From contig CAZCJE010000005.1 of the NCBI GenBank assembly GCA_964498805.1, positions 25,176 to 89,175 on the forward strand: 64,000 nucleotides of DNA, given 5' to 3'. The stretch's first letter is position 1, and each line of letters opens with the position of its first letter. The notes under the pieces were generated by a model. That model saw nothing but the letters and a program-made list of their open reading frames with translations, searched no databases and was not told the origin of the DNA. Source of the stretch: an uncultured Thiothrix sp. GTDB lineage: Bacteria > Pseudomonadota > Gammaproteobacteria > Thiotrichales > Thiotrichaceae. The position numbers and the translations under genes are program-made. Below are positions 23,023 to 60,684 of this stretch, piece after piece.

Positions 23023-23023
23023 C

Positions 23024-29905: not shown

Positions 29906-29918
29906 GCTGTCCTGTTCC

Positions 29919-44843: not shown

Positions 44844-44870
44844 AAGCGCGGCTTTATAGCCGCGCTTTTT
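44844..44870. terminator. Bidirectional terminator between the convergent GlsB-family gene and wzc
   Basis: AAGCGCGGCT-TTAT-AGCCGCGCTT followed by TTT; abuts the wzc stop codon. Confidence 0.8.
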
Positions 44871-46854
44871 ATGTTTCCAAATCGTGCAACACACAAAAGT
44901 TGCTATTAGGCAGACGTTCCAGTTGAGTTACCAACCGTTCCAAATCGGTTATTAAGGTTTGCCGTTTCAGCACATTGACCAAAATCATATCGCTGATATC
45001 CAAATCCGGAATCACTTCCGGGTGCATTTTGACATCACTAGATAAAATGAAAACTAGATCATAACTGCCTAAAAGACCATTAATTAATTGAGGAAAATGG
45101 TTGGCACGATTAAACACCGAAAATACTTCATCGGCCTTGAGCAGAGAAATTGACAGATTTTTTTGATTGGTCTGATTAACGGCAATAGGGCTAACTGACT
45201 CACCAATGAAAAAACTATCGGCCTCATTCAGTTTAAACAGCTTTTTAACCGCAGCATGGTCTTCATCCAAAGCCAACAGAACCACTTTTAATTCCCGTTG
45301 CAGGAAAAAAGCCAGCAAGTTATGCATAAACGCCACATGACGCTTGTCTTCACCTAATGCCAACAAGCTCAGGACTTTCAGACTGTCGCGTACTCGCCCA
45401 GCCTGTAAGGAAACCAGCGTGTTGCGTGAAGGCAGAAAGCGGGTTTCACCAGGGCTAGCTTTGATTAACATACGTTGGTCAAGCTTTTCCAACAGAGCCG
45501 ATTTCTGTCCGGGTAATAGGGTTTGAATGTCCTCGCGAATCTTCACGGTTTTATCACGGAAATCCAAAATACCCGCCACACTAATCCCCATGAGTAACGC
45601 AATCACTCCCCCCATACTCAGATTCACCAAATAATTGGGGGAATAAGCCAGCTGTGGTATTGAAGCCTGTTCAAGCGTGGCAATATTATTAGCATTGATG
45701 CCATTAGCGGCATCAATCTCTTTCAAACGGGTTAGCAAACTGTCATACAAAGCCTTTTCCACATCCAAATCACGCCGCAATTCATTGTAAGTGGTCATAT
45801 TGGCAACATAGGTCTGGTATTTCTTGCTGGATTTCTCCATCAATTTCTTGATTTCAGCTTCCTGCTTTTTGCTGGCTTCATAAGAAAGCTGTAGATTTTG
45901 CTGGAACTTAGCCGTTTCTTGCGCCAATTTGCTTTCAGTTTCACTAATCTGCTGACGCAATTGCAGCATGGCAGGGTAATCAGGTTTGTAGATTTCGAGT
46001 TTTTTCTGATAATCCGCCTGCAATTCGGCCAAACGGGATTTCAGCGTTTGCATGAATTGATTGGTGAGCACTCCATTAGTGCTACTCACCGCACTGTTAG
46101 AGGATTTTTGTAACTCGGTTTCGGCCACAATGCGGTCTTTTTCCGCCTGAATCACTTCTTGATCTAGCTTGACCATATTTTCAATATAAGGATTGGTGTC
46201 ATCCTTGGTCACAACCATGTCACGCGAGGCGGTAAAGCGTTGTAAACTGGCTTCCGTTTTTTGCAAAGAAGCCCTAACATCATTGATTTTACCGATAATT
46301 TTTTCTTTAGCCTGTTTAATATTGCCTTCATAATCATCAATGCTAAAGCGGCGGTATTCCTCTACAAAGGTATTAGCCACTTGTGCCGCTAGCGTTTTAT
46401 CCGGACAGGAAAAACTCACATACACAATCTGCGAATTATCCACGGGTAACACTTGCAACTGATTTTGGAAGGTTTTCATGAGTTCCGCTTGCAGTTTGAG
46501 CGGGTCTACGGTGTCAGGCTGTTGCGCACCTAGGCCTAAACGCGCGAGCACACTTTGGCGAGTAATCTGCGCTTGCGTTAGTTTCAGCTTGTCAATAACA
46601 CGCTCGGCAAGCAATTCGCTGCCGAGGATTTCATATTGTGTCTTATAAAAAGCGCTTTCATTGAGCTTAAACGCTTCACCCGTGGTCGGGTATTTCAGAA
46701 AATCCGTCGCCTCTGGTGCTAATCGAAACGATGCCGTTGCCTTATACATAGGCGCAGTCATAAAGGTAATGCCTGCTACCACCGCAAAGATCAGTAACGT
46801 TATCAGCAAGATCAACCACTTGCGATAAGCTATGGTAACGAATAATCTGTACAT
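44869..46854 (-). CDS. Wzc/GumC-type polysaccharide co-polymerase with degenerate kinase domain
   Basis: TM, PMYKATASF, YKTQYEILGS, long coiled coil (PDYP), LYDSLLTRLKE, SPN + second TM; C-terminal domain lacks intact Walker motifs. Confidence 0.85.
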   Translation of the reverse strand: MYRLFVTIAYRKWLILLITLLIFAVVAGITFMTAPMYKATASFRLAPEATDFLKYPTTGEAFKLNESAFYKTQYEILGSELLAERVIDKLKLTQAQITRQSVLARLGLGAQQPDTVDPLKLQAELMKTFQNQLQVLPVDNSQIVYVSFSCPDKTLAAQVANTFVEEYRRFSIDDYEGNIKQAKEKIIGKINDVRASLQKTEASLQRFTASRDMVVTKDDTNPYIENMVKLDQEVIQAEKDRIVAETELQKSSNSAVSSTNGVLTNQFMQTLKSRLAELQADYQKKLEIYKPDYPAMLQLRQQISETESKLAQETAKFQQNLQLSYEASKKQEAEIKKLMEKSSKKYQTYVANMTTYNELRRDLDVEKALYDSLLTRLKEIDAANGINANNIATLEQASIPQLAYSPNYLVNLSMGGVIALLMGISVAGILDFRDKTVKIREDIQTLLPGQKSALLEKLDQRMLIKASPGETRFLPSRNTLVSLQAGRVRDSLKVLSLLALGEDKRHVAFMHNLLAFFLQRELKVVLLALDEDHAAVKKLFKLNEADSFFIGESVSPIAVNQTNQKNLSISLLKADEVFSVFNRANHFPQLINGLLGSYDLVFILSSDVKMHPEVIPDLDISDMILVNVLKRQTLITDLERLVTQLERLPNSNFCVLHDLET

Positions 46855-46899
46855 AATTGTTTAAAGCCCTGAAAAACCGTTAGTACACAGCAGTCGCCT

Positions 46900-48438
46900 T
46901 TATGGGGTCAATGCCAAAGGTCTGCGCATTTTGACCTCATTACAGGCAACCGCATTGGTTAATAGTTCCTTGCGATAAATCTGCCATGCAGGCACCGGCG
47001 CATTAGCGGCATTGAAATTCCATTGCTGCATCACTTGAGTCAAACGTTGTAGCAATTGGGCAGCGGATGCACTGTTTTTCAACGCAGGATTGGCTGCACA
47101 GCTTTTAACTTTGGCCAGTAGCTGCATGTCATCCAAGCCCTGATGGAACATTTCCATGCGCAAAGACGCTAAAATTTGATTGCTAGCCGGGTCCCAATAG
47201 AACAAGGTTCCACGCTCTTCATTGCCAGTTTCACCGATAGATTGAATAAAAGAACCGTTATCCCAATCGGATACTGACCAAAAATGATAACCCTCGATAC
47301 CAAAGTAACCCATGAGCCAGCCTAGGCTGCGGATACGTTGTGGATTACCCTGAATATCATGAAAACGGTTAGCGTATAGATAAATGCGGTCACGTTGCTG
47401 TTTAGCCGTTTTCACCGCATTTTCACTCAAGGCATTGATATTGACTGTCCAGATATCCGCAATATCACCTAAGGCAGCGGCGGGTTCTTCGGTCAATTCC
47501 AAGGCAATGCCCGGCGCACATTGGCGGACACTGCTGTAACTATAAGCCACCTCTGGATAATTTATCGGCAATGGCTCATCCCATAACTTATACACAAAGT
47601 TATTGCCTAGCTTGCTACGGTTTCTCAGTTTGCTAGCAAGCGTATTGATGTAATTGCATTCCTCATTCAACCATTGCGCCCGGGTCAAACCTGCACTGAC
47701 TAATGTGTCAGACAAGGTGCTATTACGCGAAAATTGTGCACGAGATGACAAACGAACCGTCTGGAAATTATCCAAAACATATTGTTCTAACGGGCTTAAA
47801 GCGTCACTTTTCAGATATTGCTTGGGCAGAATCACCGAATTGAAGTCATAGGCACGCATCTTCTGTAACAAGGATTGCACTATTGCATCCGGAATATCGG
47901 TACGCTTGAATAACAAATTGCCTTGTAAAGTAATGTTAGGTTTATCCAAAGTCAGTGGATAGACGGTCACTTTTAGTTCACCGCGATAGCTAACAACACG
48001 ATTTTCCAGCACCTGTACTATCCAGCGATAAGTACCTGCGGGAGTACCGGCGGGGATAGAGGCTTTAATCAGTAATTGGTTGGTATTGCTTTGAATACTG
48101 GTGGTGGCATTGTTAGCCAGCGGTTGCAAAGCATCCATCGCCCCGCTAGTCGCTGTCCCCTGGATGACTTGATAAGTCTGTAAACTAATATTGGAAACAC
48201 TTTGCGCAACCCAATTAATCTGGGCATTTTTGCCTTCCATTGCGTCTAAACGCAATAACAAGGATTCAGACGCATTGCTAGCGGTTTCCAACTCGACACT
48301 AGGTGCTAACGTAGCCCACGTACTGGATTCTGGCACAAAGCGTTTGACCACACCGGCTTGTGCTAACTGGGTACAACCGAGTAATGAACACAAACCGACT
48401 GTACCAACCCAACGCCGCCAGTTTTTATTTATTAACAT
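46900..48438 (-). CDS. Exported DUF4091-containing protein, GH123-like putative glycoside hydrolase
   Basis: Signal peptide; GTPAGTYRW, YKLWDEP, DIWTV, ASLRMEMFHQGLDDMQLL resembles the DUF4091 C-terminal signature. Confidence 0.65.
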   Translation of the reverse strand: MLINKNWRRWVGTVGLCSLLGCTQLAQAGVVKRFVPESSTWATLAPSVELETASNASESLLLRLDAMEGKNAQINWVAQSVSNISLQTYQVIQGTATSGAMDALQPLANNATTSIQSNTNQLLIKASIPAGTPAGTYRWIVQVLENRVVSYRGELKVTVYPLTLDKPNITLQGNLLFKRTDIPDAIVQSLLQKMRAYDFNSVILPKQYLKSDALSPLEQYVLDNFQTVRLSSRAQFSRNSTLSDTLVSAGLTRAQWLNEECNYINTLASKLRNRSKLGNNFVYKLWDEPLPINYPEVAYSYSSVRQCAPGIALELTEEPAAALGDIADIWTVNINALSENAVKTAKQQRDRIYLYANRFHDIQGNPQRIRSLGWLMGYFGIEGYHFWSVSDWDNGSFIQSIGETGNEERGTLFYWDPASNQILASLRMEMFHQGLDDMQLLAKVKSCAANPALKNSASAAQLLQRLTQVMQQWNFNAANAPVPAWQIYRKELLTNAVACNEVKMRRPLALTP

Positions 48439-48452
48439 GATAAATGCTTCCC

Positions 48453-49748
48453 CTAAGAATGTACCGGTACGGCTTTAGCCCTATAAAGCCGACTTACGTG
48501 CCCCAGCACGACCGTATTTTGAATAATGAGTACCAGACAAGTAGCCAGCGCACTGCCCACTAATCCTCCTATAGCGGTTAAGGCTACGGTAGCGACCAAT
48601 GCAAACAGCCCTGTCAGAAAGGTAATATTCCGCAGTAACTTTTCCTGCCCAACCATAATCAGCAATTGTGCAATCGGCCCAGTCACCGCATTCACCAGAT
48701 AACCTAGCGATAAAATCACCAAGATATACCAGAACTGACTGAAACCTTTACCAAAAATCGCCATTAACCATGAAGAGCATAGCACCATTAAGATAAAAGC
48801 GGGTAATGCATACCCTGTAGAAACTTTAATGGTATGCACCAGTACAGGCCAAATTTGCTCGTATTCGCCACGCTTGTGTAAGGCAGCAAAACGCGGCGAT
48901 ACCACCTTATTAATGGCCTGTAAGATTAATCCTAATGAAGCGGCGGTACGGTGTGCAGTGGCCAGTACCGCTACATCGCCTGCGGATAACCACATACCGG
49001 TGACAATTTGTCCTGCCCAACGAATGGTTTGATCCGTCAGCATAATCAGCACTAAAGCCGTTGTACCCGACCATAACTGTTCACGAGTAACCGTTAGTGG
49101 CAACTCTTGATCAATTTGGCGGCCGGACTGGTAAAGGCTATACACCAAACGCAAAGCAACTAGCATGGTGGCAATATTACCCGCCACAAAAATCCACGCC
49201 CCTTGCGAGGCAAACTGCAATTGACCTTGCCACCACCACACACTACCGGCTAATAAAGAAAACAGCGGCAATAACAGGTTTAGCACTACCACCGTCGCTA
49301 ATGGCTTATTCAAACCTTCCAACATATTGCCGCAAGTCATGGAAATCGTCATAGGCACAATAGCCAGCGCCATAATGCGCAAAATAGGCACTAATTCCGG
49401 CTGCTGGAAAAACCAATGCGCCACAGGGTTTGCCAGCAAAGCCAAACCTAGCGCGCCCACACTTGAAGCGGCTGTTACCGCGAGCAAGGCACGGCTAATA
49501 ATAGTGCCGCGTAAATAACCCTCCTGCGGTTGATCATGCGCACCTAGCAATCGCACCACAATACGGTACAACCCCAAAGAACCTAAACCGGATAAAATAG
49601 AAGTGGCTGCAAAACCCAGAAAAAATAGTCCTACTTCATGTTTGCCTAACTGCCGCGACAAAAACACAAAAAATAGGAATAACACGCCTGCCGAGGCTAA
49701 GCGCAGAATCAAAACCATCGATACCGATTTAAACAGGTTTTTGCTCAT
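48453..49748 (-). CDS. Wzx/MOP-family polysaccharide flippase
   Basis: About 12 TM segments; PRFAALHKRG, IFGKGF, LLIMVGQEK typical of Polysacc_synt flippases. Confidence 0.85.
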   Translation of the reverse strand: MSKNLFKSVSMVLILRLASAGVLFLFFVFLSRQLGKHEVGLFFLGFAATSILSGLGSLGLYRIVVRLLGAHDQPQEGYLRGTIISRALLAVTAASSVGALGLALLANPVAHWFFQQPELVPILRIMALAIVPMTISMTCGNMLEGLNKPLATVVVLNLLLPLFSLLAGSVWWWQGQLQFASQGAWIFVAGNIATMLVALRLVYSLYQSGRQIDQELPLTVTREQLWSGTTALVLIMLTDQTIRWAGQIVTGMWLSAGDVAVLATAHRTAASLGLILQAINKVVSPRFAALHKRGEYEQIWPVLVHTIKVSTGYALPAFILMVLCSSWLMAIFGKGFSQFWYILVILSLGYLVNAVTGPIAQLLIMVGQEKLLRNITFLTGLFALVATVALTAIGGLVGSALATCLVLIIQNTVVLGHVSRLYRAKAVPVHS

Positions 49749-49749
49749 G

Positions 49750-50616
49750 TTAGAGCACCTGATAGCCGTAATGAGCTAATCTTTCCGCAGCTACGGCATT
49801 GATCTTGGCAATATCTTCACCACTCAAACGCTTGAGGCTAGACGCATTCATATTCTGAATGGTCGAATTATAACCTGTTACTGAAAGAGTCTGTTGTTGA
49901 ATATCTTTAAGTGGCTCGGCGGAAATACCAATAAAATCGCACACTTGTGCCAATATTTTATCTGGGCTCTCCACCAGTTCTTCATACTGAATCACCAATA
50001 AGCGTTGTAACTTATCCGCATGTGCTTGTAGATATTGATCACTTTCCACCCATTGTTGCGCACACAATTCAATCGGGTAACGCTCAGTGGTGATCGCGGT
50101 ATTAGCCTTACTTACCGGCGATTTACGCCGAATCCCTTCCGAAACGGTATAACCATTACGCACAATGTAGATGAAATAAGCAGGCTGGAAATATTTCTCG
50201 AGAAAACTGACCCGCGCCACATTGGAAATCGACTTTTCCAAAAACACCGGCTTACGTTTGTCATACCAAAAGCCCCAACTGCGCTGGATGCGCTTAGCAA
50301 TAGCCGCATCGGTTTGGGCAGTTTGTTCCAATTGTGGCAAACACTTATGCCACATACGTACCCAACCGCATGCTTCCGGAGTCTGCATACCATCGGTAAG
50401 AAACGCGCCTTCGGTAGGCAATGAAGCGACATCAGGATGACGCGACAGCACTGTACTCAACAAAGTCGTGCCAGAATTGTAGCATCCCAGCACAAACACC
50501 CACTTTTGCGGGGCAGCCTGCGGCCCTAACAAAGCTGTTATCTGCTTACCCATGGAGCTTCTACCCAACCAGGCTTTTACTTTTTTCCACGATTTTATAT
50601 TAGCCACGGTACGCAC
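49750..50616 (-). CDS. PAPS-dependent sulfotransferase (ST2)
   Basis: 5'-PSB VFVLGCYNSGTTLL, FLEKS, 3'-PB FIYIVRNG, IQYEELVESP. Start uncertain. Confidence 0.88.
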   Translation of the reverse strand: MRTVANIKSWKKVKAWLGRSSMGKQITALLGPQAAPQKWVFVLGCYNSGTTLLSTVLSRHPDVASLPTEGAFLTDGMQTPEACGWVRMWHKCLPQLEQTAQTDAAIAKRIQRSWGFWYDKRKPVFLEKSISNVARVSFLEKYFQPAYFIYIVRNGYTVSEGIRRKSPVSKANTAITTERYPIELCAQQWVESDQYLQAHADKLQRLLVIQYEELVESPDKILAQVCDFIGISAEPLKDIQQQTLSVTGYNSTIQNMNASSLKRLSGEDIAKINAVAAERLAHYGYQVL

Positions 50617-51520
50617 TCCAATAATCCTGTTGGGTTAAATTATGCAATTGGCCTTTTTTTATATAACCAGATGCGTATTTTAAAATCTCACGGAATAGCC
50701 AAGCCTGATCCAAACCATCAATCATGTTATGTGGATGCATCCATAAATGAGCCACCTGTTTATGTTCTACCGCATGATCAATAATAGCCTGCCAACGTTT
50801 TAAAATCATAAAATTGGGCGGTAAACGATATTGGCGACGGAATGCCATTAAACTACCACCGGGAATTTTTAAAGGTGAAGCGGCTTTAGGGTGAGGTTGG
50901 GAAACAGTGCCTTCAATATATTTTAAAGCCTCAGCAGCCCAACGCGGCTTCATATCAAAATACAACGGCATATCCCGATAAGCCTGAATACCCGCTTCAG
51001 CCAATAAATCCGTGTAACCCACACGATTACGTGGAAACACCATGGTTTTAATATCCAGCCCTTGCCAAGTTGCCCAAGCATTAATGCCTGCTAGCTCTTT
51101 TTCAATAGCGTCCCGAGAAGTTAGGGATTCTTGAAAAGGTAAATGGGTAAAACCGTGTGTGGCAATTTCATGTTGTTGGTGTTCTCGAACACGGGCAAAA
51201 ATATCCGGTGCGAACCAGCCTTCAGTATTATTTTCTTGCTCTACTTGACGTTTAAAATGATCTAACCAATTTTTACCCGCAAATAAACGTTCAGAGAACC
51301 ATATTTTTTGGCGTAAATAATCTTGTTCACTTAAGGTAAAAGCTGCCACAAATGCAAAAGTAGCCTTAAGATTATAATCGGCTAAGGTTCGTAAAATACT
51401 ATCATAAGCCTTATGCAGGTTCTGATGTGTTAATACCTGATCATGAGAAGGCCCGATACGATCAGCAAATCCCCATTTGCCTTCACAATCCAGCGATATA
51501 ATAAAACATGCCTTTTGCAT
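50600..51520 (-). CDS. Polysaccharide deacetylase (CE4/NodB-like)
   Basis: IISLDCEGKWG, ATFAFVA, HEIATHGFTH, MVFPRN, HLWMHPHN. Confidence 0.85.
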   Translation of the reverse strand: MQKACFIISLDCEGKWGFADRIGPSHDQVLTHQNLHKAYDSILRTLADYNLKATFAFVAAFTLSEQDYLRQKIWFSERLFAGKNWLDHFKRQVEQENNTEGWFAPDIFARVREHQQHEIATHGFTHLPFQESLTSRDAIEKELAGINAWATWQGLDIKTMVFPRNRVGYTDLLAEAGIQAYRDMPLYFDMKPRWAAEALKYIEGTVSQPHPKAASPLKIPGGSLMAFRRQYRLPPNFMILKRWQAIIDHAVEHKQVAHLWMHPHNMIDGLDQAWLFREILKYASGYIKKGQLHNLTQQDYWSAYRG

Positions 51521-51545
51521 AAATCCCTTAGCCCTTAAATAACTA

Positions 51546-52817
51546 TTACGATTTCATTTTAATCGTCAAATGCCATGCGCCATACAATGCTATTCCCAAA
51601 TAGATAGCTATATACTCATTATAAAAACCACGGTAAAGGTTTTGTTCTACAAAAACACTCAACCATGCAGCTACTAGCCATAGCAAATACCGCTCAGCAA
51701 ACGAGTTTTTACTGGCTTTGCGTAATGCCACCCCAATCAGCCACAGAAAAAAGCCATAAACAAATAACAATACTAATAAACCCACAATACCATTAGCTGT
51801 CAACTGATCCAGAAACAGATTATGGATAATATGAATTTTGCCAATTTCATTTTCAATAAAAACTATACCATGACCCTGACCTAAAATAAAACTAGAAGTA
51901 CTCGCAGCTAATGCTTGTTGCGCACCTAGTAAACGTCCTGAGGCACTTTGAGCTTGAATACCCTCCCCGACAAACCCAGCAAAAATCGCTTCCCCTACTG
52001 GTGAAAAAAACAGTATCCCTGCCATTAAGGTCATAGCTAATAAATGAAAGGCAATATATTTACTACGATTAATATAGTAAGCTATCAGAAAAGCCCAGCC
52101 AGCAAATAATCCTAACCAACCACTACGGGATTGCATGATTAAAATGCCAACCACTAATAAAAAAATAAATAATAAACGCCAACGTTTATGCAGCCATTCA
52201 CTCAATAAACCTGGAATTAACAACATGGTTAGAGAAGGTATTAACAGTGTACCCAATTTACCATCACTTAATGGCACACCTGTTGCTTTTCGAATAGGAA
52301 TACGAATACCAAATAAACGTCTACCCATTTCAGAATGAATACCTGTTGAAACCAGCCCAAAACCTTCTAGTATAATTAATATAGATACCACAACTGCACT
52401 GAATAAAATAGCTAGCATTACCCATTTAATGCCATGCTGCGGGTTATTTTGTAAATAACTGACGACTAAGAGTGTTACTATTAGCGTTGTTACACGAGCA
52501 AACACATATTTAAATTCGACCAAAGATTCAAAGCGCATACCATTGATCAAATCAAATACAATTAATAGAAAAAAACATACAATAACGGTATTTATATTAA
52601 TATCCAGTTGTAGATCAATTTTACGAGTAGCAATCTGTAATACTAAAAAACCAAATAAAAAAATAACACTCAATGGTGCTAAAAAGCCTAGCACTGTTTT
52701 GGGTAAAGGAAAAAACGGCACAATGAACAGAAAAAATAGCACACTGATGTCAAAAACAGTGAATGTTGGTTTTTCTTGCCCAAGTGCCAACGCTTGCATA
52801 TTAAAAAGGTAATTCAA
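51546..52817 (-). CDS. Wzy polymerase / O-antigen-ligase-family (Wzy_C) membrane protein
   Basis: About 11-12 TM segments, MQSRSG, LGQGHG, HNLFLDQLTANGIVG. Confidence 0.8.
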   Translation of the reverse strand: MNYLFNMQALALGQEKPTFTVFDISVLFFLFIVPFFPLPKTVLGFLAPLSVIFLFGFLVLQIATRKIDLQLDININTVIVCFFLLIVFDLINGMRFESLVEFKYVFARVTTLIVTLLVVSYLQNNPQHGIKWVMLAILFSAVVVSILIILEGFGLVSTGIHSEMGRRLFGIRIPIRKATGVPLSDGKLGTLLIPSLTMLLIPGLLSEWLHKRWRLLFIFLLVVGILIMQSRSGWLGLFAGWAFLIAYYINRSKYIAFHLLAMTLMAGILFFSPVGEAIFAGFVGEGIQAQSASGRLLGAQQALAASTSSFILGQGHGIVFIENEIGKIHIIHNLFLDQLTANGIVGLLVLLFVYGFFLWLIGVALRKASKNSFAERYLLWLVAAWLSVFVEQNLYRGFYNEYIAIYLGIALYGAWHLTIKMKS

Positions 52818-53715
52818 AATGAATAGGCCCGCTAAAATCCTTAAGTATCTGACAGATAGTTGGTAATTCGTGGTTATTCAGAATACCTTCCCAAAAAAAC
52901 ACGCTTGTCTGCTGACGGTAAGTTTCCATATCTGTGCCACCATGTAAAGTTCTATGCGTCGTCATAGAAGGGGTAAACAGATACGATGGGTGCAAGTTAC
53001 GCCCTGAATATCCTAAAAATTCCAATAACTTATGCGTTTCAGCAAAAGGTTCGGCATACAGCTTTTCATAATTTAGCAAATAAACATCCTTAGCTTCCAA
53101 CTCATCTTTGAGCAATTCATGGGTAACTGCCCACATTAAAGCAGCTTTCTCGAGAGGAGTAGCAACTTTATTTAACCAATGCTGCTTAGCCTGAATACAG
53201 GAGGATTTATACTTTTTATTATAAAACGTTTCTGTTAAAAATTTTTGATAATGAAGATCAAAACCAAACTCAAGCCAAAAACGTGTGCGTTTCTTAATGG
53301 AAGCTAGAACTGCTAGCGGATGGCGAATTGTGAACACTAAACGATAACGCTTACTTTGACGCAGTTCAGCTAGCATCAAATTCAGGCGAATTTCCTTATA
53401 GCCAATAATCTGACATTCTTTCCATAGCTCCGCTTCAAAACCCGGATCAGTATGATCTAAATCGCGTGGCAAATGATTGCGTAACAGCCAGCGATCTGGG
53501 TTATTACCTGCTAATATCCAATCACTATAATTAATGGCTTGATCTAGTAAGGCAGGATTTCCTGATGCATACAGAAAATCCTCGGCATTCACTAAAACAG
53601 CTGGATGAAAAGGCTCAAACAGGATTAACCCACCAAGACTTTTGGAGATAATATCAGAAACCCATGTCGTACCTGAGCGTCCGAAACCCATAATAATAAT
53701 TGGCGGATTATTCAT
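52801..53715 (-). CDS. PAPS-dependent sulfotransferase (ST1)
   Basis: IIIMGFGRSGTTWV, ILFEPF, YKEIR, FTIRHPLAVLAS, LNYEKLYAEP. Confidence 0.9.
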   Translation of the reverse strand: MNNPPIIIMGFGRSGTTWVSDIISKSLGGLILFEPFHPAVLVNAEDFLYASGNPALLDQAINYSDWILAGNNPDRWLLRNHLPRDLDHTDPGFEAELWKECQIIGYKEIRLNLMLAELRQSKRYRLVFTIRHPLAVLASIKKRTRFWLEFGFDLHYQKFLTETFYNKKYKSSCIQAKQHWLNKVATPLEKAALMWAVTHELLKDELEAKDVYLLNYEKLYAEPFAETHKLLEFLGYSGRNLHPSYLFTPSMTTHRTLHGGTDMETYRQQTSVFFWEGILNNHELPTICQILKDFSGPIHFELPF

Positions 53716-53739
53716 GTTTTTAGCCCCCTTAACAATGAT

Positions 53740-54396
53740 TTATTCGTTACCGGATTTTCCGGTTGTAATTAGACGCCAGCCAGTCAAAGCAATAACATTA
53801 ATATATTTCCAGAAACCAAATTTTTGGAAATATTGCAAGTCATAAGGTACTTTTTTTAATTGATCTTCGATAGTAGAACCATAAGGTGCATACAGTTGTG
53901 CCATACCAGTTAAACCAGGTTTAGCCATAAAACGATAATTATAACGAAAATCCAGTTCAATCAAAGGTTCGGCCAAATGTGCCCGAATAGGCCGAGGGCC
54001 TACAATCGCCATATCACCTTTTAAAATATTCCACAATTGTGGTAACTCATCTAAGTGCAATTGACGTAAAACGCGTCCAACACGAGTAACTCGTGGATCA
54101 TCTTTTTGTGCCCACTGAGGTCTCCCTTTTTCTGCATCCACATACATACTTCTAAATTTGATCAGAGTGAATTCTTGTTTACCCAAACCCAAACGCTTTT
54201 GCGTAAACAAGACATTGCCTTTATCTTCAAACCAAATAAGCAACGCTACAATAATAAATAGAGGTGAAGTCACCACCAAACCTATCGCAGCCAAAACAAT
54301 ATCCAGCAAACGCATTGATAAAGTGGCATTTGGAACAGACCCGCTGTGAACTGGCAAATTAGCCAGATAATCTTGCTCAATAAAAACACGTTCCAT
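53740..54396 (-). CDS. Initiating (priming) phosphoglycosyl transferase, Bac_transf family
   Basis: RLLDIVLA, FTQKRLG, KFRSM, DDPRVTRVGRVLR..LDELPQLWNILKGDMAIVGPRP, KPGLTGMAQ. Confidence 0.93.
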   Translation of the reverse strand: MERVFIEQDYLANLPVHSGSVPNATLSMRLLDIVLAAIGLVVTSPLFIIVALLIWFEDKGNVLFTQKRLGLGKQEFTLIKFRSMYVDAEKGRPQWAQKDDPRVTRVGRVLRQLHLDELPQLWNILKGDMAIVGPRPIRAHLAEPLIELDFRYNYRFMAKPGLTGMAQLYAPYGSTIEDQLKKVPYDLQYFQKFGFWKYINVIALTGWRLITTGKSGNE

Positions 54397-54407
54397 CAGA
54401 CTTCCCC

Positions 54408-55592
54408 TCAGTTTAGTGTGCGATAAAGATTCATCTTACGTTCCAGCATCGTTTTTAATTGATGCTCGGCACGAAGACGCTCGACAATTTCAGGCAGATA
54501 AATGTCCCGGGTATACCCCATACGTAAAATCCCAGCTGCCTTATTAACAAAACCCTGAATATCTCCCTGTTTAACGGTAAATTGTTCAAATTGAGAGCCA
54601 AACAATTCCTTTAAGCCTGCAACCTCATAGGCCATAACAGGGATTTTTAATAACATGGATTCAATGACGATATTAGAAAGCCCTTCATAACTAGACGTCA
54701 TAATCACAAGATCGGAGGCTTCCATCACATCATAAACATTGTTATAAAAGCCTGAGAAATGTACATAAGCTTCAAGCCCTAATTGCCTGACCATCGTTTT
54801 TAAACGTTGTTCATAATCAAGTTCTTTTTCAATAAGGGCTTTACCGACAAAAGACAAATGCACATCCAATCCTTGCGCACGCAATTGATGCAAGATTTCA
54901 ATAGCATGTTCATGTTGTTTACCCGGTACAATACGGGCTATATAAGTCATTAAATAGTGTGGTGATTGGCCGGAACACAATTCTTGACGTAATTTTTCCC
55001 GCTCACTATCGCTAATAGGCTTACGATTCAATAAATTATCCGGTTTACCGGTTCTGATAATCACACTATTATCTTCATGGCAAACACCGGCTTGGATATA
55101 TTCTTGTTTAAGTTCCTCACCAATAAAGACAAATTTATCGGTTACTCTACCGGTTAAACGCTCTAAATTACGATAAACCAGCCGAGGTGTAGCCGGTAAA
55201 TGTTGTGGAAACGTAGGCCCGTGAATAGTATGTAAAATATGGGGTGTTTTATTGATTTTACTTGCTGCTAATCGGCCTAATACACCTGCTTTTGCTTGAT
55301 GAGTATGTACAATATCTGGTTTTAATTGCTGCAAAACTTTTTTACAGGCTTGATAAGCTTTTAAATCATTTGCCGGTGATACATGTTTATGCAAACCAGG
55401 AATAATAATGGTTTCTACACCTTCAATCGGAGGTGCATCATTATCCGCGCCAATAATCAATGAAGTTTGAAAACCTTGGGCAACACACTCTTTTAATATA
55501 GCGGTGGTGCGGCGTGTAATACTAGCGCGCTGCTGAAAAGTGGTCAGAATGTGGCAAATGTGCTTCATTGATAAATTTCCAATATAGGCCAA
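54408..55592 (-). CDS. GT4 family glycosyltransferase
   Basis: PDIVHTHQAKAGVLGRLA, HTIHG, ARIVPGKQH, SSYEGLSNIVIESM (Ex7E). Confidence 0.9.
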   Translation of the reverse strand: MAYIGNLSMKHICHILTTFQQRASITRRTTAILKECVAQGFQTSLIIGADNDAPPIEGVETIIIPGLHKHVSPANDLKAYQACKKVLQQLKPDIVHTHQAKAGVLGRLAASKINKTPHILHTIHGPTFPQHLPATPRLVYRNLERLTGRVTDKFVFIGEELKQEYIQAGVCHEDNSVIIRTGKPDNLLNRKPISDSEREKLRQELCSGQSPHYLMTYIARIVPGKQHEHAIEILHQLRAQGLDVHLSFVGKALIEKELDYEQRLKTMVRQLGLEAYVHFSGFYNNVYDVMEASDLVIMTSSYEGLSNIVIESMLLKIPVMAYEVAGLKELFGSQFEQFTVKQGDIQGFVNKAAGILRMGYTRDIYLPEIVERLRAEHQLKTMLERKMNLYRTLN

Positions 55593-55724
55593 TTAATGGT
55601 ACTTTATGGAAACTTATGCACTTAGTCTGTGATTAACTTCACACTTAATTCAAGGTGAAGTTATTTAGGCAAATAGATTAAAAAACAATCAATGGTATTA
55701 AGCTAACGATTTAAGACCGTAAGC

Positions 55725-57389
55725 TTAATTGTTTTTAATAAACCCTAATTGGGTTAGTTTTTGTAAAATGTGTTGCGCACAATCATCCGGTGTTAAGGCC
55801 GTGGTATCGAGCACCATTTCCGGATTAACGGGAACTTCATAGGGGTCATCAATACCCGTGAAACCCTTTACCAACCCCGCGCGGGCTTTAGCATACAAGC
55901 CTTTACGGTCACGCCGTTCGCATTCACTTAACGGTGTAGCCACGTGAATTTCCACAAACCCACCCACTGCACTGATAGTTTCACGCACTTCGCGACGAAT
56001 AGCAGCATACGGTGCAATCGGTGCACAAATAGCAATACCGCCATTTTTGGTAATTTCACTGGCAACATAACCAATGCGGCGGATATTCAGATCACGATGT
56101 TCCTTGGAAAAAGACAACTCACTAGATAAGTTTTTGCGTACCACATCACCATCTAGCAAGGTAACAGGCCGTCCACCCATTTCTAATAACTTAATGCGTA
56201 AGGCATTAGCGACCGTGGATTTGCCCGCACCTGATAAACCGGTAAAAAATATGGTCAAGCCTTGTAAATGGCGTGGTGGGTAAGTTTTCTTCAGTTCGGC
56301 CATGACTTGCGGATAGGCAAACCACTCCGGTACCGGCAAATCTTCATGCAAATAACGCTGGAATTCGCCCGCAGATAAGGCTAAAGCCGCTTCAGAAGTG
56401 CTAATTTCATTTACTGGTCGATAGGCTTGCAGAGCAGGTACGTACTGCATAGCAGCGGGTGTGACAATGCTTATACCGATTTCCTCGGCATATTCGTTAA
56501 CCAGTAATGGTGCAGCAGCCGGGTGGTAGAAAGATTCAGCCCCTTCTTCAGTAACCGGACTGCCTAAACTTTCCTGTACAATGAAATGGGTACAGGCATA
56601 ATTTTTGCGGATGAGGGCATACCATAAGGCTTCGCGTGGCCCCGCCAAACGTACCGCCAGCGGTAATAGGCTGAGCATTACGCTACTTAGCGCATAGGTA
56701 GGCAAAATCTGCTCATAACAGCGCACACGGGTAAAGTGATCAATAGAGCGGCCTACACCACCTAACCCTACCACCGGCTGGATAAGTAATGGAGTTTGTA
56801 AACTTTCCGCCGCCTGCGCTGTTAGCGCTTGTTCGGCCCGATGCATCACTTCCCGCGTGTGGTATCCGAGTACTTGTTGCCAGCCTAATTGTTCAAAGCG
56901 CGCCTTTAACTCAGCAGGCGTGTGCCGGTATTGGCGATAATCATAATGCAGCGGCAACTCAACTTTTTCCAACTTACCGCCCAAATAAACCTTGCCGGTA
57001 CGGTGCAAGAGATAATCCACACCAGGATGATTAGGGTCAGTAGTACCAAATACCGCTTGCGCTTCGGCTTTTTTATCCGCTATCCAACAATCTTCAATGA
57101 GCATGAATGCTAACAACACGCCTTCACTATCACGTAAGGCAATGGTTTGGCCAATATTGAGGTTATCGGCAAACGTTTCGCTTACATCCAGCGTAATCGG
57201 CATAGGCCATAATTGACCATCGGCCAAGCGCATGGAATGTAAAACACGGTCATAATCGGTTTGTTTAAGAAACCCTTGCAAGGGTTTGAAAGCGCCAGTC
57301 AACAACATTTCCACGTCGCATACCTGACGATCGGTAAGATCCCAAGATGCCATTTGCTTGACTAGTGATGAAACAGCCTTGTTATACAT
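55725..57389 (-). CDS. cysC: Sat-CysC fusion: intact adenylyl-sulfate kinase with degenerate ATP-sulfurylase domain
   Basis: Kinase: FFTGLSGAGKST, LLDGDVVR, RDRKGLY, FTGIDDPYE. The sulfurylase scaffold is present (WPMPITL, DHFTRVRCY, AGPREA, RKNYACTHFIV) but the catalytic motifs are altered. Confidence 0.9.
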   Translation of the reverse strand: MYNKAVSSLVKQMASWDLTDRQVCDVEMLLTGAFKPLQGFLKQTDYDRVLHSMRLADGQLWPMPITLDVSETFADNLNIGQTIALRDSEGVLLAFMLIEDCWIADKKAEAQAVFGTTDPNHPGVDYLLHRTGKVYLGGKLEKVELPLHYDYRQYRHTPAELKARFEQLGWQQVLGYHTREVMHRAEQALTAQAAESLQTPLLIQPVVGLGGVGRSIDHFTRVRCYEQILPTYALSSVMLSLLPLAVRLAGPREALWYALIRKNYACTHFIVQESLGSPVTEEGAESFYHPAAAPLLVNEYAEEIGISIVTPAAMQYVPALQAYRPVNEISTSEAALALSAGEFQRYLHEDLPVPEWFAYPQVMAELKKTYPPRHLQGLTIFFTGLSGAGKSTVANALRIKLLEMGGRPVTLLDGDVVRKNLSSELSFSKEHRDLNIRRIGYVASEITKNGGIAICAPIAPYAAIRREVRETISAVGGFVEIHVATPLSECERRDRKGLYAKARAGLVKGFTGIDDPYEVPVNPEMVLDTTALTPDDCAQHILQKLTQLGFIKNN

Positions 57390-57496: not shown

Positions 57497-58894
57497 TTAA
57501 TCTTCGTTCAAGGCATGGTTAACCATGTTATTCACAGGTTTCATCAGGTAAGTCAGGAAGGTACGTTCACCGGTTTTGATAGCCACTTCTGCGGGCATAC
57601 CCTGCACCAGTTCCAGTTTGTGCTTGGCCAAGTCGGCGATTCCTTCTGGCTTGATTTTGATGCGTGCCTTATAGAATTGAGCACCGTTGTTGGGATTGGA
57701 GAAAGTATCAGCAGAAACTTGAATCACCTCCCCTGGTGTTACCTTCATGAAGGATGAGGAATTAAAGGCAGGGAAACGGATATCAGCCTCTAAACCCGCA
57801 TGAACCTTATCGATATCGCTAATATTGACTTGTGCCTCAACTTCAAAACCATCGATTTTCGGTACAATTTCCATAATTTTGCCACCCGGAGGAACAACGC
57901 CACCTTTGGTGTGATATTCCATACCGATCACGGTACCGTTTTCAGGAGCCACAATCGTGGTACGAGATAAACGGTCGGTGACCGCATTCAGACGATTTTT
58001 CAGATCAGCAATATTCAAACGGACCTGTGCAAGTCTGTCAGCCATTTCTTTCTTACGGTTATTGTTTTGCAATACCAATTGCTGCTCGGCTTCACCCATT
58101 TGCACTTTAAGACTGGATTTGGCGGTTTCCAACTCAGCAATATCACTATTGACCGACAGCACACCACGTTCCATTTGATTCAACTCTTGATTACCAATCA
58201 ATTTACGATTAAACAAATCCTGCAGGTTCTGGTGATCCTTAGCGTAAGCATTAGCCAGATTACGTTGACTTTGAATTTGTTTATCCGTGCCAGCCATTTG
58301 TTCTTTCAATTGTTGGATGCGCTGTTTTAACACGCCGGTTTCTGCACTCACCGCGGCCATTTCCACTTTAAACTGCTGACGTTCATCTGCCAGAATTTCA
58401 GCCGCACGCTCTTTAGCTTGCGTCGGATTAATGAGTTCTGCCGGGAAGTTAACGGTGGATTTGCCTTCTAATTGCGCATTCAAACGCGCTTCCAAACCCA
58501 AATAGCCTAACAATTGTTCATATACCATGCCCTTATCGGTTTGCGCTTCAGTCGGGTTAATGACCATCAGCTTTTGCCCTTTTTCGACATGATCACCATC
58601 ATCGACAAAAATGTCTTGAACCACGCCGCCTTCACGGTGCTGGATGATCTGCTTTTTCATCTGCACTTCAATACGACCGGTGGCCATAGCATGACTGCCT
58701 AACGGAGCAACCCCCGCCCACACCGCAAAAATACCAAAGACAACGACCAGTACAATTAAACCTAAGCGCTGGTAAGCAACATCCTCTGTTTGCAGGGGAA
58801 TGACATTATCCGATTTAGCCGGAGCCGGTAGACCAGCGGCAGCCGTGGCAGTAGCGGGAACTTTTGCCGTTTCAATTTTTGCCAGTTGTGCCAT
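57497..58894 (-). CDS. Type I secretion membrane fusion protein (HlyD/AprE/PrtE family)
   Basis: TM, IIQHREGGVV, coiled coil, IVAPENGTV, GGVVPPGGKIMEIVP, GMPAEVAIKTGERTFLTYL. Start 58894 has AGGAGGT. Confidence 0.95.
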   Translation of the reverse strand: MAQLAKIETAKVPATATAAAGLPAPAKSDNVIPLQTEDVAYQRLGLIVLVVVFGIFAVWAGVAPLGSHAMATGRIEVQMKKQIIQHREGGVVQDIFVDDGDHVEKGQKLMVINPTEAQTDKGMVYEQLLGYLGLEARLNAQLEGKSTVNFPAELINPTQAKERAAEILADERQQFKVEMAAVSAETGVLKQRIQQLKEQMAGTDKQIQSQRNLANAYAKDHQNLQDLFNRKLIGNQELNQMERGVLSVNSDIAELETAKSSLKVQMGEAEQQLVLQNNNRKKEMADRLAQVRLNIADLKNRLNAVTDRLSRTTIVAPENGTVIGMEYHTKGGVVPPGGKIMEIVPKIDGFEVEAQVNISDIDKVHAGLEADIRFPAFNSSSFMKVTPGEVIQVSADTFSNPNNGAQFYKARIKIKPEGIADLAKHKLELVQGMPAEVAIKTGERTFLTYLMKPVNNMVNHALNED

Positions 58895-58895
58895 C

Positions 58896-60620
58896 TTACT
58901 TACCTCCTGTACTGGCATCACGTGCGGGTAATTGACTGGTTTTGGCAGCTAACTGCGCCATCACTTGCTGACGATCACCAAATAAGGTGACGGCACCAGC
59001 AACCAGTACCAAAATTTTGTCAACTTGACTCAAAACACCAGGGCGGTGAGAAATAATGACTACCGTCGTGCCTTTTTCGCGCAAAATTTGTAAGGCTTTG
59101 AACAAGGCCAATTCACCAGCTTCATCCAGATTGGAATTAGGTTCATCCAGGACAATCAAGCTAGGGTTGTCATACATAGCGCGTGCCAAGCCAATGCGTT
59201 GACGCTGACCACCAGAAAGAACCCCGCCACTTGGGCCAATCACAGTGTCATAAGCATTAGGCAATTGCAGAATCAATTCATGCACACCAGCCATTTGCGC
59301 CGCCGCCAGGACTTTTTCGGCATCGACTTTATTGAAACGAGCAATATTTTCCGCCACGGTACCATCAAATAATTCAACATCTTGTGGCAAATAGCCAATG
59401 AAGCGCCCTAAAGCATCGCGATCCCAATGGCGGATATCCGCACCATCTAAGCGCACTTCACCAGCTGCTTGTGGCCACAAACCCAATAAAGCCCGTACTA
59501 AGGAAGATTTACCAGCACCACTTGGGCCGACTACTGCCAAAGATTCGCCTGCTTTCAGGCCAAAGGTAATATTGCGCAATACAGCCTCTTTGCCACCCGG
59601 TGGCACCACAGTCAGGTGATGTAAGCCCAAATGACCTTGTGGGGTAGGCAGTTCCATGCGTTGAATATCAGCAGGATACGCTTGCAACATAATATTGAGG
59701 CGTTCCCAAGATTGGCGAGCAGCAGCAAATTGTTTCCACGCACCGACCAATTGATCCAACGGTGACAAGGCACGCCCTAACAAGACAGAACCGGCAATCA
59801 TCATGCCGCCACTCAATTCCATATTAATAACCAAATAAGCCCCCAACCCCAGAATCAGCGATTGGTTGAGCATACGGAAACTTTTTGACAGGGTAGCCAA
59901 TGCACTCGAACGATCATTGCCCAAACCTTGCCACAACAAGGCTTCATTATGGGATTGCTGCCAACGTCTGAAGATACCGCGTTTCACGCCTAAAGCGGTG
60001 GCAACTTCGGCATTGCGCATACTGCGTTCGAGTAACAAACTGGCTTGGGCAGATTTGCCATGGGCTGTTTTTAATATACTGGAGGTAGATTTATCCACCC
60101 ACAAAGCCAACAGGAACGTCATAATGCCTGCGCCGACCCCAAACCAGCCGTACCAGGGATGGAACATGAACATGACAGCAAGGTAAAACGGGAACCACGG
60201 CGCATCAAAAAAGGCAAATACACCCGTACCCGAGATAAAGTTGCGAATGGTATTAAGATCATTCATCGGTTGCAGGGAAGCATTGCGCGGATTATGCAGC
60301 GCGTGGCGGAACATCATATCCACCAATCGCGATTGCATAGCAACATCCATACGGGTACTGATACGGGCTAGAATACGCGTTCGCGCAAACTCCAGTATTG
60401 CCATGACCGCAAACATGGTGACCGTAATCAGCGTTAACATTAATAAAGTGCTTTCACTACGCCCTGCGACTACGCGGTCATACACCTGCAACATGTAAAT
60501 CGTTGGGGTAAGGAATAACATATTGATAAAAAAGCTGAACAGGCCGACATAGAAGAATGACTTCTTAGACAGCATCAGCAGCTTTTTCAATTCAGATGGT
60601 GCGGCTTGATTTGGACCCAT
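58896..60620 (-). CDS. Type I secretion ABC permease/ATPase (PrtD/AprD/RsaD family)
   Basis: YMLQVYDRV, FFDAPW, GPSGAGKSSL, LSGGQRQRIGLAR, LDEPNSNLD; no C39 domain. Confidence 0.96.
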   Translation of the reverse strand: MGPNQAAPSELKKLLMLSKKSFFYVGLFSFFINMLFLTPTIYMLQVYDRVVAGRSESTLLMLTLITVTMFAVMAILEFARTRILARISTRMDVAMQSRLVDMMFRHALHNPRNASLQPMNDLNTIRNFISGTGVFAFFDAPWFPFYLAVMFMFHPWYGWFGVGAGIMTFLLALWVDKSTSSILKTAHGKSAQASLLLERSMRNAEVATALGVKRGIFRRWQQSHNEALLWQGLGNDRSSALATLSKSFRMLNQSLILGLGAYLVINMELSGGMMIAGSVLLGRALSPLDQLVGAWKQFAAARQSWERLNIMLQAYPADIQRMELPTPQGHLGLHHLTVVPPGGKEAVLRNITFGLKAGESLAVVGPSGAGKSSLVRALLGLWPQAAGEVRLDGADIRHWDRDALGRFIGYLPQDVELFDGTVAENIARFNKVDAEKVLAAAQMAGVHELILQLPNAYDTVIGPSGGVLSGGQRQRIGLARAMYDNPSLIVLDEPNSNLDEAGELALFKALQILREKGTTVVIISHRPGVLSQVDKILVLVAGAVTLFGDRQQVMAQLAAKTSQLPARDASTGGK

Positions 60621-60656
60621 GTGGCGTGAACCCTGGCTAGTGAAAAATAATTATGC

Positions 60657-60684
60657 AATGGTTGAGAACAGCCCCTCAACCATT
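60657..60684 (-). terminator. Stem-loop between the surface-protein gene and the T1SS genes
   Basis: Perfect 10-bp inverted repeat AATGGTTGAG-N8-CTCAACCATT; no immediate T-run, so the role is uncertain. Confidence 0.45.

Follow-up and report, generated by a model that had tools for sequence, protein, structure and literature searches.

Biosynthetic de-N-acetylases such as LpxC, MshB/BshB, PIG-L and the animal N-deacetylase/N-sulfotransferase NDST expose an amine, which is then derivatised by the next enzyme. Here, we have analysed a stretch of 64,000 nucleotides from an uncultured Thiothrix sp., hereafter "the window", which carries a ten-gene operon on the minus strand (44869-57389, about 12.5 kb) with a deacetylase of the CE4 fold, which we refer to as "DAC", and two sulfotransferases, which we refer to as "ST1" and "ST2"; the genes of DAC and ST2 overlap and are translationally coupled. 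We consider it very likely that the operon serves the synthesis of a sulfated polysaccharide and that one and the same residue is the target of DAC and of ST2; that the product of ST2 is an N-sulfate, i.e. that ST2 is an N-sulfotransferase, is proposed tentatively, at close to but below an even chance. In animals, heparan sulfate is N-sulfated by NDST, and no better candidate for a bacterial counterpart of that enzyme is, in our view, currently available than the DAC-ST2 pair.

N-linked sulfate has been reported, by a nitrous-acid/dye assay, in two bacterial materials: the extracellular polymeric substances (EPS) of Pontiella, which were reported to be 75-80% N-sulfated in a paper stating that no prokaryotic sulfotransferase is known to act on glycosaminoglycans (PMC7356697), and the EPS of granular sludge, where both O-linked and N-linked sulfate were detected, and where genome searches missed the sulfotransferases (PMC10483923). 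Both papers call the bacterial genes or pathways for N-linked sulfate unknown (PMC10483923, PMC7356697). The bacterial carbohydrate sulfotransferases that are listed in a 2024 review, NodH, KpsS and Stf0, are O-sulfating only (PMC11625862), while a 2026 paper describes an artificial NDST, a deacetylase-sulfotransferase fusion that was built since native NDST expresses poorly in bacteria (PMC13353177); for the combination of polysaccharide deacetylase, sulfotransferase and N-sulfation in bacteria, our literature searches have yielded this last paper only.

The comparison of the gene neighbourhoods in 80 loci that contain ST2 relatives (37-67% identity; 84 ST2-family genes) has revealed that a CE4 gene is located immediately upstream, on the same strand, of 28 of the 84 ST2-family genes, but of none of the 55 other sulfotransferase-like genes in the same loci (Fisher p 1.1e-7, from counts that are not corrected for shared ancestry); the adjacency expected from the share of CE4 genes in these loci is approximately 4% (binomial p about 1e-18). 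The upstream CE4 gene mostly overlaps the ST2-family gene or ends at most 10 nt away from it, and it is drawn from two non-orthologous subfamilies. The first is the family of DAC, which is represented in Gammaproteobacteria and located directly upstream of an ST2 relative in the orthologue (L084), a deltaproteobacterial metagenome-assembled genome (MAG; L140) and an Auribacterota MAG (L146). The second, which we refer to as "CE4-A", consists of Polysacc_deac_1 proteins of about 260 aa with the motifs TxDDG, HxxxH and AYPxG and no signal peptide; by the clustering of upstream neighbours, it fills the slot in 22 loci, from Bacteroidota, Salinibacter, Desulfobacterota, Planctomycetota, Gemmatimonadota, Alphaproteobacteria and Gammaproteobacteria. 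In Christiangramia lutea, the ST2 homologue is directly preceded by a canonical Polysacc_deac_1 protein (75 bits), which is not of the DAC type. The CE4-ST2 pair occurs in at least eight bacterial phyla: the positives in Bacteroidota include Pontibacter, Cesiribacter, Chryseolinea, Christiangramia, Salegentibacter and Salinimicrobium, and the others belong to Salinibacter, Desulfobacterota, Planctomycetota, Gemmatimonadota, Auribacterota and the Alpha-, Gamma- and 'Delta'-proteobacteria.

The same question has been approached from the side of the deacetylases, in 80 genomic loci of DAC relatives and in 80 loci collected with an alignment of Bacteroidota CE4-A proteins, a narrow query that is biased toward Bacteroidota and Actinomycetota. 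The DAC family is most often accompanied by a two-domain GNAT-type acyltransferase of about 340 aa, which is adjacent in 27 loci and represented by a remote homologue (hhalign probability 99.3%) in 15 more, i.e. in 42 of the 80; AsnB-type amidotransferases, AMP-binding enzymes, short-chain dehydrogenases/reductases (SDRs) and GT4 glycosyltransferases are other frequent neighbours. Natural fusions of DAC with a GT2 glycosyltransferase also exist (proteins P0241, P0242, P0244, P0250, P0252 and P0254, 620-670 aa), which suggests that the family works at the stage of lipid-linked glycosyl transfer; its usual role appears to be to expose, at this stage, an amine that a neighbouring enzyme re-derivatises.

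In the CE4-A loci, an ST2-family gene lies directly downstream of the deacetylase in 16 of 80 by the HMM criterion and in 18 of 80 by neighbour clustering, adding Mangrovivirga halotolerans, Marivirga lumbricoides, Marinigracilibium pacificum and Flavobacterium sp. XGLA_31 to the cultured positives. In close relatives that lack ST2, CE4-A is directly followed by the GT4 gene that otherwise stands behind ST2, and a hexapeptide-repeat acyltransferase is often located upstream; in the ST2-positive loci of Pontibacter, a CysN-type gene is found upstream. Within Flavobacteriaceae, ST2 is present between CE4-A and GT4 in Salegentibacter flavus, S. maritimus, Salinimicrobium catena and S. terrae (L257, L262, L259, L263, L268, L272) and absent from this position in Salegentibacter tibetensis, S. 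salarius, Salinimicrobium xinjiangense, Zunongwangia and Gillisia (L255, L267, L273, L278), so that closely related strains with and without ST2 constitute natural controls.

In both CE4 subfamilies, the deacetylase is thus retained throughout, and what varies is its partner, an N-acyltransferase in some loci and an ST2-type sulfotransferase in others. The functional pairing of the deacetylase with ST2, which an earlier note on this DNA had proposed, is well supported by this directional and translationally coupled adjacency, by its recurrence with two CE4 subfamilies and by the nature of the alternative partners. The last point is also the best argument at hand for an action of ST2 on the amine: since both subfamilies otherwise partner N-acyltransferases, the freed amine would be the expected target of the partner enzyme.

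DAC itself belongs to a distinct clade of proteins of about 300 aa (220 homologues). The alignment of 26 diverse homologues has revealed the invariant residues D11-C12-E13, H117-E118, H122, H126 and H262-P263-x-N265, among which D11 and E13 are, judging from the sequence, the putative catalytic base and metal ligand. Searches of the Protein Data Bank (PDB) with DAC, both as a single sequence and as a profile, returned nothing significant, the HxxxH region alone being aligned; in the profile search, the segment HEIATHGFTH is matched to the CE4 HxxxH metal motif of HP0310 and of Aspergillus and Bacillus CE4 enzymes. The AlphaFold2 (AF2) model of DAC (pLDDT 93.6) has 37 fold matches in the PDB at E<=1e-3, mostly CE4 enzymes; the best are M. 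smegmatis 3rxz and H. pylori HP0310 (3qbu), with a TM-score of about 0.6, and PuuE, ArnD, PgdA and PdaC are also matched, while the deacetylase domain of NDST1 (8cd0) takes rank 22 (E 3.5e-5). DAC has no signal peptide, strand β1 beginning at residue 5, and the cytoplasmic location matches what PAPS-dependent chemistry requires (PAPS, 3'-phosphoadenosine 5'-phosphosulfate). From the CE4 fold matches, the alignment of the HxxxH motif and the lack of a signal peptide, DAC is very probably an active, cytoplasmic, metal-dependent de-N-acetylase.

Both ST2 and ST1 possess the features of sulfotransferases, namely a 5'-phosphosulfate-binding (5'-PSB) loop and a 3'-phosphate-binding (3'-PB) motif. 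In ST2, the 3'-PB region is R150-N-G-Y, the segment EKS (LEKS) aligns with DKS (LVDKS) of the CurM sulfotransferase (CurM ST), and E66 (P-T-E) aligns with the Glu of the CurM P-P-E motif, which we take to be the catalytic Glu of CurM. The PDB sequence matches of ST2 are CurM ST (1.8e-10), followed by tyrosylprotein sulfotransferases (TPSTs), and NCBIfam gives a weak match to NoeE; the fold neighbours of its AF2 model (pLDDT 93.9) are all sulfotransferases, with TPST2, CurM ST and the heparan sulfate 3-O-sulfotransferase (HS 3-OST) nearest and the sulfotransferase domain of NDST1 (8ccy) at rank 35 (E 2.9e-5). ST1 (Pfam PF13469/PF00685) has a canonical 5'-PSB loop, GRSGTTW, as well as an RHP...S motif; its family is rare, a search of 1.84 billion proteins having given only 39 representative clusters at E<1e-30, and the PDB sequence search gave no significant relative. 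The role of ST1 as an O-sulfotransferase is a guess by exclusion.

The overlap of the DAC and ST2 genes is real and conserved, but smaller than the 17 nt that the earlier note had given for it and also for the ST1/Wzy pair, both figures stemming from the starts of the longest open reading frames (ORFs). The ST2 orthologues keep the N-terminal segment M-A-x-K-x-x-K-K-x-K-A-W/R-L-G-R-S, and the DAC/ST2 junction reads GTGGCTAA in the window and ATGGCTGA in its orthologue L081; therefore, the true start of ST2 is GTG 50607, which overlaps the stop codon of DAC by 8 nt, as compared with 8 nt in L081, 8 nt in L244 and 11 nt in L245. The likely start of the Wzy-like gene, ATG 52799, is located 1 nt past the stop codon of ST1, and in the orthologue the ST1 and Wzy genes overlap by 1 nt; the 17-nt overlap at this second junction is probably an artefact of the ORF caller.

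The operon is represented in environmental sequence data: words from 49750-53715 reach 81-97% in at least 20 runs, which are mostly labelled wastewater metagenome and were drawn from at least 10 studies, and sludge metatranscriptome assemblies contain contigs across most of the operon, with the PAPS synthase gene among the covered genes. One metatranscriptome contig of 2.8 kb holds ST1, the priming transferase and GT4, and a contig of 155 nt bridges the DAC/ST2 junction. The carrier is a common wastewater bacterium, and its operon is apparently transcribed in sludge.

According to the reading that we favour, the PAPS synthase would produce the sulfate donor, and the priming transferase and GT4 would join two sugars into a unit carried by undecaprenyl phosphate, on the cytoplasmic side of the membrane; DAC would then strip the N-acetyl group from the N-acetylhexosamine (HexNAc) of this lipid-linked unit, ST2 would sulfate the freed amine, yielding an N-sulfated hexosamine, and ST1 would attach an O-sulfate. 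Finally, the unit would be flipped by Wzx and polymerised by Wzy, with the chain length fixed by the Wzz-type protein and, possibly, with trimming of the polymer by a GH123-like lipoprotein. What we infer from the gene content and the comparisons above is the nature of the substrate, the sequence of the steps and, most of all, N- rather than O-sulfation by ST2; the product is probably a sulfated polysaccharide that contains amino sugars, with Wzx/Wzy-dependent assembly and a very short, probably disaccharide, repeat. More broadly, and with slightly less confidence than is attached to the N-sulfate itself, the CE4-ST2 pair may be a widespread bacterial two-protein N-deacetylase/N-sulfotransferase system, independent of NDST in its origin, put together at least twice with CE4 enzymes of different lineages, and the genetic basis of the N-sulfated polymers of sludge and marine bacteria.

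Several observations weigh against N-sulfation by ST2 or against a general link between the two families. In the 5'-PSB loop of the ST2 family, G-C-Y-N-S-G-T-T (window 50470-50490, residues 40-47), an invariant Asn replaces the usual catalytic Lys/Arg; the nearest characterised relatives of ST2 (CurM ST, the TPSTs, NoeE and HS 3-OST) all sulfate oxygen, and the features of sequence and fold do not separate an N- from an O-sulfotransferase in the case of ST2. Homology with NDST is absent beyond the general level of the fold, and no CE4-sulfotransferase fusion occurs among the ORFs of 163 loci (0 with both domains); a concatenated DAC+ST2 query, run against 5.8 billion proteins with 8000 word-sharing candidates and hence limited in sensitivity, retrieved no fusion with a sulfotransferase, although it did retrieve the DAC-GT2 fusions. 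A sulfotransferase-like gene is found within 10 kb in just 6 of the 80 DAC-family loci, and most CE4-A loci have no ST2-type partner, and therefore the deacetylases are independent of sulfation. Conversely, half of the ST2-family loci (40 of 80) lack a CE4 gene within 10 kb, and therefore the ST2 family as a whole is independent of a neighbouring deacetylase; moreover, about 15 of the positives come from a single Bacteroidota clade, and the adjacency counts are uncorrected for shared ancestry. As regards the external evidence, the N-sulfate data from sludge and Pontiella rest on an indirect assay, a structurally proven N-sulfated bacterial polysaccharide was not found in the literature (whose coverage here is incomplete, so that absence is no proof), and the metatranscriptome contigs could include carried-over DNA.

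The CE4-free ST2 loci belong mainly to clades of Latescibacterota and Gemmatimonadota, where a GT4 gene is located upstream. A protein of about 510 aa with a GINT1_N domain, the N-terminal domain of glucosamine inositolphosphorylceramide transferase 1, adjoins the sulfotransferase on its downstream side in 19 of these 40 loci (e.g. L133:10791-12314 and L124:10891-11955, with 17 further ST2-family loci) and in none of the loci that contain CE4. An aminotransferase as the source of the amine in the CE4-free loci has been rejected, DegT showing no enrichment (9/40 vs 7/24). A single ST2 subclade marked by deacetylase adjacency has likewise been rejected: in a neighbour-joining tree, the positives are scattered over several clades, next to large CE4-free clades, and therefore no simple "N-sulfotransferase subfamily" can be defined.

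The alternative that survives best, which we regard as a real possibility, though a doubtful one, is that both sulfotransferases O-sulfate and that the amine freed by DAC stays free, giving a zwitterionic polymer; ST2 would recognise the de-acetylated sugar and act on the same or a neighbouring residue, and its need for this sugar would be the reason why the two genes travel together. All characterised relatives of ST2 are O-sulfotransferases, as noted, and the bacterial sulfated polysaccharide structures that we found in the literature all carry O-sulfate; the loci where CE4-A is directly followed by GT4 further imply that a free amine is viable as an end state or an intermediate, and half of the ST2-family loci have no deacetylase at all. 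However, O-sulfation offers no simple account of why ST2 alone, and none of the 55 other sulfotransferase-like genes, adjoins the deacetylase, and it leaves unexplained why the other usual neighbours of these deacetylases are N-acyltransferases.

An alternative that we consider unlikely is that DAC and ST2 are adjacent without sharing an atom or a residue: DAC would take part in N-acyl exchange together with an acyltransferase from another locus, remove O-acetyl groups or be non-catalytic, and ST2 would act on another sugar. The predominance of the GNAT-type acyltransferase as the partner of the DAC family is in line with such a separation, as are the unusual motif 1 of DAC (D-C-E instead of DD) and the breadth of CE4, which includes O-acetyl esterases and pseudoenzymes, acetylxylan esterases and BA3943 being among the fold matches of DAC. 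Yet neither the operon nor the window encodes an acyltransferase, the invariance of HxxxH, the acidic motif 1 and the C-terminal His in 26 diverse homologues argues for an active DAC, and the conserved overlapping order with two CE4 families would be difficult to account for unless DAC and ST2 have a substrate in common. Least probable of all, and very unlikely in our judgement, is that no polymer is made and that the Wzy_C protein is a ligase or O-oligosaccharyltransferase, which transfers a short sulfated glycan onto lipid A-core or a protein, perhaps the RTX protein encoded next to the operon: PF04932 (Wzy_C) is indeed not restricted to polymerases but also takes in WaaL ligases and PglL-type O-oligosaccharyltransferases, there are just two glycosyltransfer steps and no OPX/Wza gene in the operon, and an RTX protein with a type I secretion system is encoded directly upstream, but the Wzz/PCP and Wzx genes, kept in all orthologous clusters, are a signature of Wzy-dependent polymerisation.

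The genes of the operon, which is larger than the interval 49750-55592 that the earlier note had considered, are listed in Table 1.

Table 1. Genes of the operon in the window, from the first to the last, and additional genes of the orthologous operons.
Feature	Position	Strand	Remarks
PAPS synthase (bifunctional sulfate adenylyltransferase/APS kinase)	55725-57389	-	Operon gene 1; Pfam PUA_2, ATP-sulfurylase and APS_kinase
GT4 glycosyltransferase	54408-55592	-	Pfam Glycos_transf_1 and Glyco_transf_4; sole elongating glycosyltransferase of the operon
Priming transferase (polyprenyl-phosphate glycosyl-1-phosphate transferase), 218 aa	53740-54396	-	Pfam Bac_transf 199.7 bits
ST1 sulfotransferase	52801-53715	-	Pfam Sulfotransfer_3 43 bits, Sulfotransfer_1 36.5 bits
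Wzy-like polymerase	51546-52799	-	Pfam Wzy_C 40.3 bits; longest-ORF start TTG 52817, likely start ATG 52799
DAC, CE4-fold (NodB-type) deacetylase	50600-51520	-	Pfam Polysacc_deac_1 25.6 bits (cut-off 23.1)
ST2 sulfotransferase	49750-50607	-	Pfam Sulfotransfer_3 80.5 bits, also Sulfotransfer_1; longest-ORF start 50616, true start GTG 50607
Wzx-type flippase	48453-49748	-	Pfam Polysacc_synt 50.1 bits, MatE weak
GH123-like predicted lipoprotein	46900-48438	-	Pfam GH123_cat 29.5 bits (cut-off 23.1)
Wzz/PCP chain-length determinant (EpsF-like)	44869-46854	-	Last operon gene; Pfam Wzz and GNVR; NCBIfam EpsF 147.9 bits, below cut-off
Extra genes of orthologous operons (three sugar-nucleotide genes; third sulfotransferase)	L081:1658-4925, 10852-11760; L244:2604-5876, 11768-12691; L245:322-3136, 6180-7088		

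The spacing of the operon is tight, with gaps of 1-45 nt except for 132 nt behind the PAPS synthase gene. The gene set named in the earlier note (a deacetylase, two sulfotransferases, a priming transferase, a GT4 and a Wzy) has been borne out by the ORF list and by Pfam and NCBIfam; the operon, the whole window and the orthologous clusters indeed contain a single priming transferase and a single GT4, and the very short repeat that the earlier note had deduced from this, i.e. a disaccharide, fits every orthologous cluster. The PAPS synthase (NCBIfam PRK05537, 816 bits against a cut-off of 669) supplies the sulfate donor of the operon. The priming transferase has a catalytic domain of the EPS_sugtrans/WcaJ type in NCBIfam, every match being under the equivalog cut-offs; the top NCBIfam similarities of GT4, all weak, are stp2, BshA, TuaC, SdgA/B and PglJ, and its orthologues occupy the equivalent position in L081, L244 and L001. 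A Wzx/Wzy pathway set is united in one locus, with Bac_transf, Polysacc_synt, Wzy_C and Wzz+GNVR all above the Pfam gathering scores. Among the operon proteins and the scanned flanking genes, Pfam gave no match to OPX/Wza (Poly_export) or BY-kinase domains, and these genes may be encoded at another genomic site; the Wzz/PCP protein is extended at its C-terminus by about 200 aa, in which Pfam gave no match to a kinase domain.

The GH123-like protein has a lipobox-like motif at its N-terminus (...LCSLLGC) and orthologues in L081, L244 and L245. Its similarity to GH123, a family of beta-N-acetylgalactosaminidases, is weak, and it is kept in every orthologous operon; it may be a hydrolase that trims the polymer or sets it free, and its presence hints that the product contains a beta-linked HexNAc.

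Among the 80 DAC loci, only one, from the gammaproteobacterial MAG L001, has the whole operon in common with the window. The order GT4, priming transferase, ST1, Wzy, DAC, ST2, Wzx, GH123-like, Wzz is shared by L001, L081, L244 and L245 (DAC 52-66% identical), with the position of Wzx unchanged across the orthologous clusters. The orthologous operons contain four extra genes: an SDR epimerase, a PseB/FnlA-like UDP-GlcNAc 4,6-dehydratase and a UDP-sulfoquinovose-synthase homologue (412 bits), located between the PAPS synthase and GT4, and a third sulfotransferase behind ST2. All four are absent from the window, where the junctions are clean, and the window therefore represents a reduced variant; in the relatives, the sulfoquinovose-synthase homologue beside a HexNAc dehydratase hints at a C-sulfonated 6-deoxy-HexNAc. 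In the more distant L246 (DAC 41% identical), the sulfotransferases are gone and GT4 stands behind DAC; the DAC gene is directly preceded by those of an AsnB-type amidotransferase and of a 348-aa protein without a Pfam match, which possibly belongs to the GNAT-like family.

An RTX protein of 1042 aa (DUF4214 and HemolysinCabind repeats) is encoded, with an ABC transporter and an HlyD-type partner, directly upstream of the operon (57497-63930, minus strand). These genes resemble cabABC of Vibrio vulnificus, a calcium-binding matrix protein system that is co-regulated with the brp exopolysaccharide locus (PMC6113621), and the RTX protein could play a comparable part in the matrix by binding the sulfated polymer. 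The downstream flank contains TerC, a phytase-like protein, HtrA and ThiC, and the remaining genes of the window are housekeeping genes (SecA, ArgJ, Ffh, LpxC, FtsZ); the region 21775-37361, judged solely from its tightly packed minus-strand ORFs, is probably a cell-division (dcw) cluster. ThiC is at most 84% identical to its counterpart in any species-representative genome, the best matches (82-84%) coming from Gammaproteobacteria MAGs, a Sedimenticolaceae MAG and Candidatus Thiodiazotropha. The G+C content is 0.37-0.42 across 50-56 kb, in the middle of the operon, as against 0.45-0.50 in the flanking housekeeping DNA, a dip which suggests that the operon was acquired by horizontal transfer.

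The operon provides a concrete gene candidate for the N-linked sulfate that has been reported in granular sludge and in Pontiella polymers. Microbial heparin production is hampered by the poor expression of animal NDST in bacteria (PMC13353177), and a native, soluble bacterial deacetylase-sulfotransferase pair would be useful for heparinoid synthesis, even if its natural substrate is not heparosan; if our favoured reading is true, natively prokaryotic enzymes would be available for this purpose. The question is directly testable, the pair being present in cultured Pontibacter, Christiangramia, Salegentibacter, Salinimicrobium and Marivirga, with relatives that keep the deacetylase without ST2. 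If ST2 is an O-sulfotransferase, the pair would still be a defined module of deacetylation-dependent sulfation, of more modest interest.

Compared with known CE4 enzymes (HP0310/PgdA, 3rxz, ArnD, PgdA/PdaC), DAC shares the fold and the HxxxH motif, and it has an acidic motif 1 and a C-terminal region with the putative catalytic His; it differs in its motif 1, S-L-D-C-E-G-K-W-G (D-x-E), in place of TFDD, in its marginal similarity to PF01522 (25.6 bits) and in forming its own cytoplasmic clade of about 300 aa, whose members are partnered with GNAT or fused with GT2. ST2 resembles CurM ST, the TPSTs and NodH/NoeE in its PAPS-binding fold, and its best PDB and NCBIfam similarities are found among them; these enzymes sulfate hydroxyls on polyketide, tyrosine or Nod-factor acceptors, and ST2 differs from them by the Asn in place of Arg/Lys in the 5'-PSB loop and by a pair of N-terminal helices that is kept in the orthologues.

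As for sulfated-polysaccharide loci, the synechan xss cluster of Synechocystis is reportedly a Wzx/Wzy-dependent cluster for a sulfated exopolysaccharide, and sulfated capsule clusters are said to be known in marine Vibrio and Cobetia. The polymer of Vibrio sp. KMM 8419 carries O-sulfate, and a deacetylase is unmentioned in its paper (PMC11641403). The operon of the window differs from the sulfated exopolysaccharide and capsule clusters in the translational coupling of a CE4 deacetylase to one sulfotransferase family, and in its minimal set of glycosyltransferases, namely the priming transferase and GT4.

The likeness to NDST lies in the proposed logic, in which a metal-dependent, CE4-like deacetylase would free the amine of a HexNAc and a PAPS sulfotransferase of the Glu-base type would then sulfate it, and in the fold-level match of the DAC and ST2 models to the corresponding domains of NDST1. 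The earlier note had described the pair as a split NDST, which does not hold in the sense of homology: NDST1 was not found by the PDB sequence searches with either protein, the Pfam matches are PF01522 (DAC) and PF13469/PF00685 (ST2) only, with none to HSNSD, and many other CE4 enzymes and sulfotransferases are closer than NDST1, at its ranks of 22 and 35. The two activities reside in two genes with an 8-nt overlap and not in one fused bifunctional polypeptide; the proteins are cytoplasmic and would probably act on a lipid-linked repeat unit, whereas NDST acts on the finished polymer in the Golgi lumen. The genes of the heparosan (GlcA-GlcNAc) backbone are also missing, neither the operon nor the 64-kb window containing a heparosan synthase, a UDP-glucose dehydrogenase or a C5-epimerase, and assembly would instead proceed through the priming transferase, GT4, Wzx and Wzy; heparan-like chemistry has been rejected on this absence of uronic-acid genes, and the description "glycosaminoglycan-like" can be kept for the logic of deacetylation followed by sulfation, but not for the polymer. 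The DAC-ST2 pair is therefore neither a member of the NDST family nor heparan-like; it would be a convergent functional analogue of NDST.

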